Shown here one piece after another: positions 24,836-63,903 of a stretch of DNA of 64,000 nt. A program made the position numbers and the translations under genes. Every line of letters starts with the position of its first letter. The first letter of the stretch is position 1. Source of the stretch: Octopus vulgaris (Eukaryota); the NCBI GenBank assembly GCA_951406725.2, contig OX597823.1, forward strand, positions 52,700,001-52,764,000, read 5' to 3'. Under the pieces are notes generated by a model. It searched no databases. It was not told the DNA's origin and saw nothing but the letters and a program-made list of their open reading frames with translations.

Positions 24836-25050
24836 GTTTATCCAAACATGAAAACACAAAGAGAAAACACAACAATGCGAGGACGTGGAACAAGTATAGT
24901 GTTATTGGATGCTCAGGAAAGGAAAGAAAGAAGGAAGATTTAACGTTTCGAGCAGAGCTCTTCGTCAGAAACATAGGAAAACAAAAGATCCAAGGAAGGG
25001 AAGATGGAGGAAAAAATTGCCAACAATACACGCACGGTCACATTTTGAAA
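24836..25050 (-). mobile_element. Penelope-like pLTR fragment
   Basis: Abuts (TA)n; contains a minimal hammerhead followed by a pyrimidine-rich tail on the minus strand. Confidence 0.65.
24938..24972 (-). ncRNA. minimal type I hammerhead ribozyme motif
   Basis: Minus strand: GUUU CUGACGA A GAGC UCU GCUC GAAA CG UU AAAU; palindromic AACGUU in place of stem III. Confidence 0.7.
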
Positions 25051-25135
25051 TATGTACATATAATAATGTGTTTGCATGTGTACAGTATCTGGTTTGCAAC
25101 ATTCTTCATATGAAGTTGTGTGTTGAAGCAAATTA

Positions 25136-25316
25136 TGTTGTGTCTGGGGAGAGTCATTTTGTCTTAATGCCTTATTATCTAACACACTCACAGGTTTAAT
25201 TTCTGCAATGAAAATTTTGGAAGGAAAAGTATAAATAATAAATGAGTGGAAATCAAACCAGTGTGTGTATTAAATAATAAGATATTAAGACAATATGACT
25301 CACCACAAACACAATA
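25136..25316. repeat. imperfect inverted repeat (about 68-bp arms, about 45-bp spacer)
   Basis: 25136-25203 vs reverse complement of 25249-25316, roughly 80% identical by eye. Confidence 0.8.
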
Positions 25317-25336
25317 TATATATATATATGTTTATA

Positions 25337-25462
25337 CATATATATATATATATATATATATATATATATATATATATATATATATATATATATATATATA
25401 TATATATATATATATATATATATATATATATATATATATATATATATATATATATATATATA
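25337..25462. repeat. long perfect (TA)n
   Basis: Direct reading. Confidence 0.95.
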
Positions 25463-25686
25463 TGTAAAAAGCATTGGTATCGGTGCCGATGCCATGAAAA
25501 AAGCATTGCAGTACACTCTGGAGAGTGGTTGGTGTTAGGAAGAGCTCCCAACCATAAAAACAAGCCAAAACAGACTACAGAACTTTTTTGCAGGCCCTGA
25601 CCTTGCCAATTCTTGCCAAGCCATCCAACCCATGTCAGCATGGGAAACAGACATTAAATGTCGATGATGATGATGATGATGATGAT
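25463..25686 (+). mobile_element. RTE-type 3' tail
   Basis: catccaacccatgtcagcatggga...cattaaatgtc(gat)n. Confidence 0.7.
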
Positions 25687-25769
25687 ATATATTACATATT
25701 GTTCTCTTATTATTGGGATCAATAATTATATATATATATATATATATATAAACTTACATAGTAGATATC

Positions 25770-26225
25770 TTTTTCTTTCTTGTTTCAGTCATTAGACTGT
25801 GGCCATGCTGGGACACCACCTTGAAGAATTTTAGTTGAACAAATTGACCTTAGTACTTAGATTTTTAAAGCCTGGTAAATATTCTATCAGTCTCTTTTGA
25901 TGAATTGCTAAGTTATAGGGACATAAACACACCAATCAGTTGTCAAGAAGTGGTAGAGAACAAACACAGACACAATAACAGATACACACACACACACACA
26001 TATACATATATATATATATATATATATATATATATATATATATCAATAGGCACACACACATTTATATATGCATATACAATGGGCTTCTTTCAGTTTCTGT
26101 CTACCAAATCAACTCACATTGATTTAGTTGACCTAAGGCTATAGTAGTAGAGACTTGCTCAAGGTGTTATGCCGTGGGACTGAACCCAGAAGCGTATGGT
26201 TGGCAAGCAAATTTCTTACCACATA
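25770..26225 (-). mobile_element. SINE family A
   Basis: Full reverse-complement architecture with internal CA/TA tract. Confidence 0.8.
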
Positions 26226-59655: not shown

Positions 59656-59969
59656 AACAGTTTAAGATATTCTTGGAGGAAAACTCACAGTTTCTATCTT
59701 TTTTAAGGAAGATGGTTATTTTACTCCATCAGCAACAGGCACTAAACAAATACATTAATTTTTAAAATAATATAAAGAAGAGGAGTAGTAGAAATAAGCT
59801 ATCACAGACATGGTAACTGTAAAGGCCATATATAATGTAAGATCTTTCTCTTGTATGGGTTTAAAAAGTTGTGGCAGACTCAGGAAAGGAAAACTATATG
59901 AAACAGTGGAAACCTTCTGAAGTGATAAAGAAGTGAAATTGCAGTTTGCTAGCAATTATATTTATCTTT

Positions 59970-60360
59970 GTCTTTTACTTGCTTCGGTCATTAGACTGTG
60001 GCCATGCTGGGGTACCACCTTGAATTTTTAGTCAAATGAATCAACACCTGTACTTTTTATTTTTTTTAACCCTGGTACATATCTATGGCTTCTTTTGATG
60101 AACTGCTAAGTTACGTGGATGTGAACACACCAACACTGGTTGTCAAGCAGTGATGGGGGCACAAACACAGACACAAAGACACAGATATCCTATATATATA
60201 TATATATATATATATATATATTCTTTCAGTTTCCACATACAAGGCTTTGGCTAGCTCAAGGCTATAGTAGAAGACGCCCAAACTGCCATGCAGCAGTACT
60301 GAACTTTGAACTATGAGGTTGAGAAGCAAACCTCTTTACCACACAGCCGCACCTATTGCC
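59970..60360 (-). mobile_element. SINE family A
   Basis: Consensus match. Confidence 0.8.
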
Positions 60361-60574
60361 TATGTATCTTGAAGTAATTTAACTTAGTGCTTACCTACAA
60401 GAGTCATTATTCTGTCAAAATCATAATTCATATTACACTACCAAACTTAGATTAGTGGTGTTTGGTAACAATGGTAGAAGAACATGGTGGGTCAACAAAT
60501 TTCCAGTCTTCTCTCATGAGAAATGCTTGGGAACACAACTGGAGAATCAGCCATTAATTGCACCTGAACATATT

Positions 60575-60799
60575 GGTTTCAAATTTCACTACAAGGTCAG
60601 CAGTAGTTATATGGAGAGGAGGGGATAAATTGATTACATTGACCTTACTGCTCCACTGATACTTATTTTATCGACCTCAAAAGGATGAAAGGTAAAGTCA
60701 GCTTCAGTAGATTTTGAACTCAGAACATAAAGACAGAGGAAATGTCACTAAGCATTTTTTCCAGTATGCTAATGATTCTGCCAGCTTGCCACCTTATCA
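60575..60799 (-). mobile_element. SINE family B with TSD
   Basis: cacctgaac(a/g)tatt at 60561-60574 and 60800-60813. Confidence 0.8.
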
Positions 60800-61319
60800 C
60801 ACCTGAACGTATTTTTTGAAGAATTCCGGATCAGTTCCATAGTGAACGTATACAAAATGGTTATTGGCAAGGAGACAAAAACCAAATTACTTCAGTAGAT
60901 TTTTCTGCTCCCTATCCAAAATCATCATTGTTTACAATCATCAAAATCAACAGACATCAAAATCAAAACTGAAAAAATACAATTTCATCTACACCTTCTA
61001 CAAATATATCTGAATAATCATCATTAAGAGCTTCTAAGCTACTATCTGGCCACTGCAACTTGAAGGTTTCCCCAAGCTGTGCCAAATGATCTTATCCTAT
61101 TGCACTAAAATTCTAGATTTTTCAATGTCTGTCTCTTTTCTTTACACAATTTTGTCTATTTGATGTTGGGTCATCTTTCAAACATAAAGAAATTGTCTTT
61201 CTTCCAAACATAAAGAAATTATGCAATTCTCCAGAGCACACAGCTATACTTCACTATCCTAGCATGCTATATCATTCTTCTGTTAATACTATGAAGTACT
61301 ATATCAATCTCCTACTAAA

Positions 61320-61618
61320 ATTGGGTTCAAATTTGGACACAAGGCCTGGAATTTCAGGTGAGGGAGTAAGTCAATTACATCAACCTCAGTACTCAACTGG
61401 TACTTATTTTAGCAATTCCAAAAGGATAAAATGCAAAGTTGACCTCATCAGAATTTGAACCAAGAATTTGAACCCCAGTGCTCAACTGGTATTTATTTTA
61501 TCAACCATGAAAGGTAAAGTCAACCCTGGTAGAATTTGAACTCGGAATGTAAAGACGGATGAAATGTCACTAAGTATTCTACCCGGCATGCTAATGATTC
61601 TGCCAGCTTGCTGCCTTA
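61320..61618 (-). mobile_element. SINE family B with an internal duplication
   Basis: cagt(a/g)ctcaactggta...gaatttgaac occurs twice. Confidence 0.75.
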
Positions 61619-63685
61619 TATTTAAGTTATATTAACAATAAGAGTGCATTTCTCTTTCTATAGTTTTACTATTTTGTTTTGCATGTGTGTGTGTAAGCCT
61701 GATGATGGTGTGAGTGTGTTATCAGAAGCGAAATTAGATATTGACTAAAGTTTTTACCTCTGAATAGCCATATCATATAAGAGTCAGTCAACTTGTTTGT
61801 TGTCCTGACCGACCAGCAATAACTTTTACCAAGAGTTTCCTGTTTGATTTCATTAATTCACTATTTACAGAAGAATATAATTTAATAAGGATGCAATAGT
61901 TGGAAAGAATCAAGCAATAAGATTGACGTGATGTTGCATGGGAGACTGCAGAACTTCATTGTTGATTAGATTTGTCAACTGTAAAAGATTAATTTAAGAG
62001 AACATTAGTGAGGATTACTAAGTAATTGCTATAAATGTGATACTCATAACCATTTTAATTAATCTAGTAATTTTTAGTACCGTAAGCTACAAAGACTAGG
62101 GACAGTTTATACTGCTGGAGGTTATTAGTTGTAAAAGAAATGACAGAGATTACGTCCTGTCCTTGATGGCTTCAATGATGAGGACCAGTGAGTTTAGTGA
62201 TGTTCATAATGAGAGATTGGCAGCGAGATCATGATGATTCCTGGTAGTGGCATTGACAGAAGATATGATTACAAACATGATGGTAGGAGGTAGAAAAATG
62301 TCCTAAGAATATTTTGAAAGATCTGTCTGAAACTATAGAACACTTGATTGCATTTTGATTACTCTATGTAATCAGCATAAACAGTGCTATGCATGATGAA
62401 GCACTGGCATCATGTTTTATTATCATTCTACCTTAACAGATTTCCAAAGACTGCACTCAACCAAGAAATAGCAAGTTGTGTTTGAAAAGACATTGGTTAC
62501 AGAAAATAGGCTACAAACAATTCAATCTCCTCGTCTCTTTTCATATTTTAATAAATTGTTATTTTCCTTGTCAGGATAAAAGTAGAGAATAAGAATTGAG
62601 ATATTTAATATGTAAATCAGGATAAAACTGGCTGGAAAGATGTAAACTACAAAATCCGAACAACAAAACAAGATTTCTCATGAGGTTTATCTTATTTACA
62701 ATTCAAAGAAATAACTGTCTCTTTTGGCAAATAAAATTTAGTGAATGAATCATGTGTGTCTCTGTGTGTACATCTGTGTGTATCTATGTGTATGGGTATA
62801 TATATCAAGTGTGAATGTGCATATGTATATTTGTGTATGTGTGTTTGTGTGTGTGTGTAAGTGTGTGTGTAAGTGTGTGTGTGTGTGTGTGTTTGTGCGT
62901 GCATACAAATATCAAAAGGCTATGAGTAATATTGTTTGCTATCCGTATATTTTAAAATAGTTACACGTCTACTGAATCAGTTAAATCAATAACTAGAAAA
63001 TATTACTCTTTCTAAATGTTTAACATTAATCCTAGGTTCAGCAAAGTCTACATTTTTAGACAAATTTAAAATGGATGTGTAGATAAATAGTTCAGAAAGC
63101 TTAGTAAATATAACTAAAACATATAGATCGAAAAAGCAAACCCATTTGTTTTGTTTGCCATGTATGTTCAACTATATCTGAAAGTAAATTTATAAACAAC
63201 TGGTATAGCTGGATTTTTCAAGAATATGGATTCTCTTCCTACACATAAATAAACACAGACAATAAAAGTCCTGTATTTGTTCTGTTCTCTTCTGTTTCTT
63301 TACTGTTTATTAATCTATTCATTTTAATATTTTGAAATTTTACAGCTACGTCTGCAGAGAATTAAGTGTTCTATACTTGTAGATGACTTAGTAAAGCATA
63401 AGAATGTGCACGTGTGTTTGTGTGTTTATGTATGTATATATATATATATATATATATATATATATATATATATATATATACATATATATTATATTACACA
63501 CACACAGTGTGTGTGTATAGTTACATATGTATATACAGTTTTATATATATATATATATATATATATATACATACATAAGTATATGTGTGTATACATATGC
63601 ATATATATATATATATGTATGCATATATGTATGTATATATGTATGTATGTATGTATGTATGTATATGTATGTAATATATATATAT

Positions 63686-63903
63686 TTAGTTGTAATAGTG
63701 AAGACAAACTGAACAGTGATATTTCAGAATGATTTAATATGTGCATTTCAGGGTTGTAAATTATATAAGAAATACATATTTTAACTGATGATGACCTTAC
63801 ACAATGGATGCATTTCCTATTATATATCATGTAAACCAGAAACGTGTGTAATAAATGATTTCAAAATATAACCAGTTTCGTATGAGTTTATTACGACAAC
63901 TAA
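63686..63903. repeat. old fold-back inverted repeat next to (TA)n
   Basis: 63686-63778 aligns, roughly two-thirds identical by eye, to the reverse complement of about 63808-63903. Confidence 0.55.
63778..63856 (+). ncRNA. type I hammerhead motif with long stem II
   Basis: CUGAUGA at 63785-63791; stem II UG..UUACA...UGUAA..CA; GAAA CGUGUG UA at 63839-63850; imperfect AU-rich stem I. Confidence 0.55.

Follow-up and report, generated by a model that had tools for sequence, protein, structure and literature searches.

What are the hammerhead ribozyme motifs that recur, often next to (TA)n, along a 64,000-nucleotide stretch of the Octopus vulgaris genome (assembly GCA_951406725.2, contig OX597823.1, positions 52,700,001 to 52,764,000; hereafter the window), and what kind of element left them there? 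The initial annotation saw a recurring cassette of non-coding families derived from Penelope-like elements (PLEs), a retrozyme-like system of a possibly uncharacterised kind. Our analysis leads to a different answer: with a probability of about 0.88, the motifs are the hammerhead-bearing 3′ ends (pseudo-long terminal repeats, pLTRs) of several unrelated coding PLE families, left behind as truncated or fold-back copies. The motifs, the collinearity with coding sequence, the inverted arms, the two 3′ ends and a family-specific (TA)n preference were observed directly. Families are labelled by their motif in the window: A (24938), B (28282), C (48700), D (49369), E (50506/52382), F (56439), G (63785) and I (45833); their features are collected in Table 1.

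That the motifs are real and far beyond chance is clear from their numbers. In the window, a strict type I descriptor (CUGANGA, GAAA, UH and three stems) matches five sites against a mean of 0.07 (maximum 1) in 100 local dinucleotide shuffles; with a relaxed core there are six sites against 0.39, the extra one being at 48705. For the genome at large (2.8 Gb), 40 stretches of 10 kb were taken at round-number coordinates and set against 20 shuffles. In these 400 kb the C3-G8 descriptor has 13 matches, spread over 8 of the 40 stretches, versus 0.3 after shuffling (maximum 1), and the U3-A8 descriptor has 3 versus 1.3 (maximum 3), a count that is not significant. The rate proposed earlier, one motif per 8-10 kb, holds locally; the sampled density is about one per 30 kb, so that the window is about 3 times richer. 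Extrapolation gives about 90,000 intact-looking motifs genome-wide, with a Poisson range of about 50,000-150,000 in which matches such as inverted pairs are not independent. All of the families are high-copy dispersed repeats, with first-look candidates numbering from at least 565 to at least 4346 per family, and the DNA examined altogether (about 2 Mb) holds 267 hammerhead matches in 42 clusters. The motifs have the type I core (C3-G8 or U3-A8), GAAA, UH and the three stems of the minimal hammerhead of PLE pLTRs, and the full core is kept in 9 of 20 to 19 of 20 copies, depending on the family. Stem III is fully palindromic in 17 of the 26 hammerhead clusters listed; among the window families a short palindromic stem III is found in A, C, D, F, G and I, the loop of E is palindromic and B is near-palindromic. 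An Rfam scan of the window had no hammerhead family among the best 150 of its 343 matches, which were dominated by microsatellites matching microRNA models.

The list of seven motifs from which we started needed some correction. Those of A, C and both arms of E are intact; those of B, F and G are damaged in the window and intact in other copies. The CTGATGA at 49309 is incidental, reading CTGTTGA in most of the genomic copies listed, and the true motif of family D and its twin on the other strand lie nearby. The intact motif of family I had been missed.

What the motifs belong to emerges from copies elsewhere in the genome. Six of the eight families (B, C, D, E, F and I) are there collinear with PLE coding sequence (reverse transcriptase, RT, or GIY-YIG endonuclease), which removes the description of these families as non-coding; the linkage of each family to an autonomous PLE, suggested at the outset, is achieved for the same six, with no partner for A and one weak link for G. 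Judged by motifs and by-eye comparison with published sequences, two of them appear to be Hydra-clade (B and E), two would be Neptune-type (C and D), one Poseidon-type (F) and one a PLE of unsettled clade (I). Pfam recognises RVT_1 and GIY-YIG on two Neptune-type frames and RVT_1 on the family F frame. B and E carry the Hydra set of motifs, namely a C-terminal endonuclease, a CxCX5C linker, and CxxC and CxH (CxY in B) motifs that surround E and N, together with the (TA)n preference of that clade. A view of family E as a non-autonomous element of about 1 kb was rejected, since longer flanks reveal a coding PLE: frames with CxCX5C, CxxC and CxH were found in 4 of 20 long loci, their stop lying about 3.5 kb ahead of the 3′ end, and the gap is a conserved microsatellite-like untranslated region (UTR). 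The top 40 copies of E are 99% identical. Hydra elements are generally under 3 kb, a tendency rather than a strict criterion, and E departs from it with its 3′ UTR alone. Family B is placed in the clade by three loci (L271, L274 and L276), where one copy has CxY and CxH was not seen. In family C, 3 of 25 copies share more than 400 nucleotides (nt) upstream into a GIY-YIG frame, locus L238 giving a further coding link, and 7 of 30 GIY-YIG loci have a family D pLTR, 82-92% identical, downstream; both families have a CX2-5CxxC linker ahead of a C-terminal GIY-YIG domain, as in Neptune elements. Family I has a C-terminal GIY-YIG frame upstream in 5 of 20 loci. Beside these stands a young Neptune-type family, sister to D (L338-L341, L217, L222 and many more), with many intact 781-codon frames, RVT_1 and GIY-YIG matches and a U3-A8 hammerhead about 1 kb downstream; this family was probably active recently.

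The families are far from uniform in their surroundings. A (TA)4 lies beside the 3′ end in 22 of 29 copies of A, 19 of 20 of B and 29 of 30 of E (background 3.7%), and, in a wider window, in 22 of 25 of C, 19 of 23 of D and 8 of 19 of I (background 8.2%); in family F it was found in 0 of 30. An inverted arm is present in 2/30 copies of A, 10/20 of B, 0/25 of C, 11/23 of D, 15/20 of E, 22/30 of F, 10/20 of G and 2/20 of I. The initial annotation was right to see hammerheads from the pLTRs of many PLE families, palindromic in stem III and accompanied by inverted arms; the single cassette was not borne out, being a sum of known PLE habits that are unequally spread over the families. Further same-strand copies within 1.5 kb are rare (A 1/30, B 0/20, C 0/25, D 0/23, G 1/20). 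A second set of family A had one in 5 of 30 copies, and the three inspected were separated by (TA)n or unrelated DNA. Among the copies examined there were no head-to-tail arrays, and one partial tandem, at family E locus L247. Over the 3.5 kb that precede the E hammerhead at L252, and at 51483-52240 in the window, the 3′ UTR of this family is conserved (TA)/(TG)-like sequence; that of B is in like style and shorter. It follows that the element spreads its own preferred type of target, and that a part of the microsatellite-like DNA of this genome is transposon cargo.

The ends of the copies bear on how they arose. Of tail-picked family A copies, 27 of 30 begin 63-84 nt ahead of the core (the reference reached -84), and when copies were picked by sequence downstream of the cleavage site, 0 of 30 began at that site; in family C, 22 of 25 begin about 33 nt ahead of the core. 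In family E the inverted arm ends 23-29 nt past the cleavage site in 14 of 15 inverted-arm loci and the main arm about 92 nt past, the tail signature described, for the elements treated there, in PMC11167929 and PMC8557442. Such an inverted 5′ copy with a one-sided tail is rare or absent in A, C and I. In the Anolis Poseidon element, AT-rich DNA is nicked on both strands, RT starts internally, cleavage is assisted by protein, and two internal RT start sites explain the one-sided tail (PMC11167929). By analogy, target-primed reverse transcription beginning just downstream of the ribozyme would most likely leave the short truncated or fold-back copies seen here: the GIY-YIG domain would nick AT-rich DNA on both strands, and extension of both strands from two internal RNA start sites would give a fold-back arm and a one-sided tail. 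A full transcript would have two copies of the RT start site. Use of the 3′ copy would yield truncated or full elements; reverse transcription from the copy in the 5′ pLTR back to the transcription start would yield solo pLTRs, and with them the fixed 5′ ends of A, C and F, needing no separate non-autonomous family. The template is likely to be uncut RNA, because the whole ribozyme lies within insertions and none of the 30 family A copies begins at the cleavage site; this agrees with reports that hammerhead mutants insert normally in vitro. The ribozyme would probably cleave only as a dimer through the palindromic stem III, or with the aid of the PLE protein; predicted dimers of C and of E pair via stem III. 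The fixed 5′ ends of C (48677-48682) and A (25040-25047) resemble an initiator motif (CAGTT, TCAA), and would fit transcription starts of internal RNA polymerase II (Pol II) promoters. Between C and a sister family, compared by eye, both sides of two stem I pairs differ with five pairs kept, and the stem III palindrome differs in length; the hammerhead structure appears on this comparison to be maintained between lineages. In family A, non-CpG changes number 2/270 in the core versus 98/4687 in the flanks, a weak difference, as in neutrally decaying copies.

RNA reads were examined for family F, in three runs of one study, from a species possibly other than that of the window; the reads appear unstranded. 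They cover the family equally on both strands with a depth that follows DNA copy number, and they give no starts, no pile-up of ends and no clear A-to-G excess; 78-82% of them continue into unlike sequence. Tens of fold-back joints lie near the head of the family, so inverted copies are present in RNA, probably inside host transcripts. Of the 139 RNA joints, 15 were listed and none is joined at the cleavage site, in what is ordinary RNA-seq.

Several of our results weigh against ascribing all of the motifs to coding PLEs. Pfam has no RT or GIY-YIG match in 7 of 10 PLE proteins, being blank on the Hydra-type frames, the family I frames and the family F endonuclease, and a protein search with the family E endonuclease gave no relative among longer proteins. 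The main-arm end of family E was chosen by the query. The step that would produce solo pLTRs is one that we infer, and the RNA reads lack the pile-up of ends. Family G has a single weak coding link, a relative (L421) directly behind a Neptune-type endonuclease fragment. For family A no coding partner was found in 60 loci from two partly overlapping searches; 70 GIY-YIG stretches and tblastn of eight PLE proteins gave chance neighbours only, and an all-against-all comparison upstream of the first 30 loci found sharing only of microsatellite or common-repeat sequence. A is the only family that looks like a fixed short non-coding unit; F, too, spreads mostly in short form, but from a coding-linked family.

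Family F requires separate treatment. Its C-terminal GIY-YIG domain has no cysteine linker and its hammerhead lies over the start of the open reading frame (ORF), as in Penelope/Poseidon elements; a sense hammerhead stands downstream of RT in 12 of 30 loci, and at L081 the frame opens just ahead of the ribozyme and passes the pLTR end into the N-terminal domain. Past the endonuclease stop comes a tRNA-like segment with A and B boxes (the head); an (AAT)n tract follows, and after it the start codon and then the hammerhead. This contiguity of head and frame was assembled from L070-type 3′ ends and L081, and none of the loci examined was a complete copy that begins with the head. Aligned to tRNAs of eight isotypes from the same genome, 28 heads score 50-54 with four of them and 35-45 with the other four, versus 26-29 (maximum 45) for shuffles; Rfam had no tRNA match in the single head copy scanned, and ARAGORN at a lowered threshold gave noise only. 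L290 holds a gene that resembles tRNA-Lys(TTT) although its anticodon is TTC; ARAGORN calls it Glu. Of the head-bearing loci (20 fetched of 40 places), 17 begin within 17 nt of the first base of the head and 3 extend upstream. None of 30 tail-picked copies extends into the coding region, and none of 32 pieces met by chance begins more than 4 nt upstream of the head, some of these loci overlapping; short units far outnumber coding copies. The solo copies keep the frame of the autonomous element, with in-frame lengths in 14 of 16 and no stop in 9 of 16.

Runs of four T (T4) are scarce in this family. Fifteen of 18 F units have none, whereas copies of A through D always have at least one. The sense strand, of about 2.7 kb, lacks any shared T4 run: where at least three copies overlap, over about 2.5 kb, not one T4 site is common to half of the copies, and the rate per copy is 0.37 per kb, base content alone predicting 2.3-2.7. 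For comparison, 17 shared T4 sites occur in the 5,715 nt of six PLE frames from other families, although two control frames are likewise fairly poor in T4 when copies are counted singly (0.7-0.8 per kb). When two natural F halves are shuffled by dinucleotides, 4.0 T4 runs are expected, with P(0)=0.006, and the halves hold one private run, for which P(≤1)=0.063. Runs of three T are not depleted (22 versus 16 expected). For Phe, TTT makes up 23% of codons, whereas T is the last base in 54% of the other two-fold codons, in counts from copies of one element that are not independent; a like gap for Phe was otherwise present only in a small family I sample. Shuffling synonymous codons within single stretches of F is not informative (P 0.6-0.7).

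The position of the head and the missing shared T4 runs point to transcription of a coding PLE by RNA polymerase III (Pol III). As a tentative reading of these sequences, somewhat less likely than not, family F could be a Penelope/Poseidon PLE transcribed whole by Pol III from a tRNA-derived promoter in its pLTR; its coding strand may have been purged of T4, leaving an uncapped RNA with the hammerhead over its first codons, and the same promoter might then have seeded tens of thousands of short interspersed element (SINE)-like solo copies. Use of Pol III for the short unit only is slightly less likely than this whole-element reading. In a literature search with Repbase, Dfam, SINEBase and most subscription papers outside its reach, no tRNA-derived head in a PLE pLTR and no Pol III PLE was found. 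The tRNA-derived octopus SINEs described in the 1990s may include the family F short unit. Self-cleavage is reported to promote cap-independent initiation in viral UTRs (PMC13725137); the precedent is not directly transferable, because in F the cut would fall inside the frame. If true, the whole-element reading would mean that F is an autonomous retroelement driven by Pol III, and that a PLE can give rise directly to a SINE with a ribozyme. It would cut across the customary division in which coding retrotransposons use Pol II and SINEs use Pol III, and would raise the question of how an uncapped transposon RNA is translated.

How, then, do other explanations fare? Chance matches in AT-rich repeats might be suspected from the U3-A8 count, which does not rise above shuffles, and from the strict match at 32589, which is spurious (GAAA is missing from its inspected relatives, members of a family with half a core only); but the excess of the other descriptors, one motif per family at the expected place and compensated stems refute this notion. 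A retrozyme-like system, in which non-coding families self-cleave from tandem transcripts, circularise and reinsert, has more to recommend it: family A is non-coding and of fixed length, the short units of F greatly exceed its coding copies, one E locus is a partial tandem, and a pLTR origin has been reported for animal retrozymes (10.64898/2026.07.22.740005). However, it fails its defining test. The tandem repeat with at least two hammerhead units was not found, same-strand neighbours being as rare as described; ends, as examined on the 5′ side in A and on the 3′ side in E, lie off the cleavage site; and a lack of coding capacity holds for A only, with six of the eight families linked to coding sequence. 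We regard the retrozyme reading as largely refuted and very improbable.

Harder to dismiss are two explanations of narrower scope. One makes A and F self-standing SINE-like elements with an internal promoter of their own, copied in trans by a PLE protein. It gains from the near-fixed 5′ end of A, of which there are 10 matches in the 400-kb sample, from the confinement of chance-met F pieces to the head and beyond, and from the tRNA-like head and T4-free units of F. The retained reading frame of F solo copies tells against it, as does the Anolis Poseidon protein, which in the published account needs RNA beyond the RT start sites that solo copies lack (PMC11167929), and the fixed 5′ end is predicted identically by the by-product route through the 5′ pLTR; we consider it unlikely, if by no means far-fetched. 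The other concerns F alone: the pLTR of an element transcribed by Pol II, as other PLEs are, would have taken up the head of an old SINE as a passenger, and the scarcity of T4 would be a compositional accident. Rfam gives the head copy scanned no tRNA score, other PLE frames can be T4-poor too, the single-stretch shuffles are uninformative and the two halves hold one T4, at P(≤1)=0.063; moreover, most RNA reads run on into unlike sequence. A mere passenger would sit awkwardly with starts clustered at the first base of the head, with some 2.5 kb devoid of a T4 site common to half of the copies, and with a deficit that spares T3 and falls on TTT among Phe codons. We keep it as a possibility to be taken seriously, without leaning towards it.

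Set beside known systems, then, the PLE ends of the window with their minimal hammerheads belong to a known class that includes one published octopus family, and they are mostly new members of it. The idea of an uncharacterised kind of element is overtaken by Hydra-1_Obim, a PLE of Octopus bimaculoides for which the supplement of Craig et al. 2021 (PMC8557442) gives a hammerhead and a (TA)n preference. As that source describes the Hydra clade, including Hydra-1_Obim, B and E resemble it in their C-terminal endonuclease, CxCX5C linker, CxxC and CxH/Y, in a hammerhead near the 3′ end and in (TA)n targets, and their RT agrees with that of Hydra-1_Obim motif by motif; they are nonetheless other families with other hammerhead sequences, and the long microsatellite-like 3′ UTR of E is unlike the short Hydra elements described there. 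Published PLE hammerheads share with ours single dispersed motifs from truncated PLEs, opposite-strand pairs and many families per genome, an extra base after position 9, a palindromic stem III and the U3-A8 core variant, the last described in schistosome PLEs (PMC4209133). Our extrapolated count is about 10 times the 4,000-9,000 published for coelacanth and Xenopus, with descriptors that differ, so that the comparison is not like-for-like; for the giant squid, 235 Rfam hammerheads are on record (PMC6962438). Non-LTR (long terminal repeat) retrozymes, as presented by Cervera and de la Pena 2020 (PMC7229834) and Li et al. 2026 (10.64898/2026.07.22.740005), have in common with our families the type I hammerhead, short units and a pLTR origin; their definition calls for circular RNA and for hammerheads, two or more, arranged in tandem repeats, whereas the families here are dispersed, solo or inverted.

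Family F is a possible new variant. With the Anolis carolinensis Poseidon element PAc, as described by Frangieh et al. 2024 (PMC11167929), it shares a hammerhead over the ORF start, a pLTR that extends into the ORF and stops there, a pair of 3′ ends separated by about 30 nt, and frequent inverted arms; unlike PAc in that description, it carries, ahead of its start codon, a tRNA-like head with an (AAT)n tract, and it has no shared T4. Its nearest precedents are Sm-alpha and Helenus. The schistosome Sm-alpha and Sj-alpha (PMC6765202, PMC2770079) likewise combine a tRNA-related Pol III element with a hammerhead in tens of thousands of copies, but in these accounts they are tandem and non-coding with no PLE partner named, whereas the F head stands in the pLTR of a coding PLE. 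The Helenus terminal-repeat retrotransposons in miniature (TRIMs; Kojima 2024, PMC10886601) also have tRNA-derived sequence within a terminal repeat; as reported they are non-autonomous LTR elements without a ribozyme, and F is a PLE with an RT-endonuclease frame.

The role of the PLE hammerhead is a live question, because the ribozyme is dispensable for insertion in vitro. A genome with about 10^5 motifs, at least two dozen types and young families such as E and the D-sister family is good material on which to pursue it. Moreover, the Hydra-clade copies lend genomic support to a two-start-site mechanism otherwise shown only in one lizard element.

Table 1. Hammerhead-bearing PLE pieces in the window (positions of the 64,000-nt stretch)
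Feature	Position	Strand	Hammerhead	Remarks
Family A, ~215-nt non-coding pLTR-like unit	24836..25047	-	24938-24972, intact	fixed 5′ end; 3′ end in (TA)n
Family B, 3′ end of putative Hydra-clade PLE	28280..28447	+	28282-28342; position 9 is G here; atypical closing of stem II	full core in 13/20 genomic copies
Family I, 3′ end of PLE with C-terminal GIY-YIG	45735..46123	-	45833-45867, intact	intact in 19/20 genomic copies
Family C, pLTR of putative Neptune-type PLE	48677..48900	+	48700-48743, intact; CUUGAAGA core with one additional U	GUAUAC palindrome
Family D, inverted arm	49185..49295	-	49233-49280	second hammerhead copy
Family D, 3′ end of putative Neptune-type PLE	49296..49510	+	49369-49416	U3-A8 core
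Family E, inverted arm	50489..51478	-	50506-50556, intact	arm stops 23 nt past cleavage site
Family E, last ~1 kb of ~3.5-kb microsatellite-like 3′ UTR of young, putative Hydra-clade PLE (main arm)	51483..52518	+	52382-52432, intact	~70-nt tail, then (TA)n
Family F, inverted coding fragments	56137..56440	-		RT piece 56137-56339 joined to N-terminal ORF piece 56337-56440
Family F, pLTR remnant	56439..56625	+	within first ORF codons; truncated, split by 42-nt insert	full core in 16/30 copies
Family G, inverted arm	63690..63777	-		adjoins (TA)n
Family G, old pLTR-like unit	63771..64000	+	63780-63855, degenerate here	copies 72-82% identical; full core in 9/20 copies

The family F copy in the window is an inverted, internally deleted coding piece with a truncated pLTR, and it lacks the family's tRNA-like head. 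The insert that splits its hammerhead is SINE-tail-like (56471-56511) and has a 16-nt duplication. This SINE-tail-like piece also meets the F pLTR at the identical point of loop II at L048, and the shared junction suggests either a recurrent junction or a small chimeric subfamily. Families outside the window contribute additional well-formed hammerhead types (L376:8996, L379:7136, L049, L251, L400 and L402), some with U3-A8 cores and long perfect stems. The half-core family, at 32567-32730 (+), is another pLTR-like family, with CUGANGA and stem II without GAAA, terminating in (TA)-rich DNA; a weaker copy lies at 24531-24622 and others at L025, L051, L158, L214 and L227; at L227 an inverted copy adjoins PLE RT sequence. 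The window also holds a Tc1/Tc3-type transposase fragment at 17362-17667 (-) (PF01498, E 3e-11), and open exon-like stretches stand amid microsatellites at 54900-55080 and 54372-54470 (+), the one checked having no Pfam match. If a host gene runs across the 54372-55080 region, the fold-backs of D, E and F would lie in introns.

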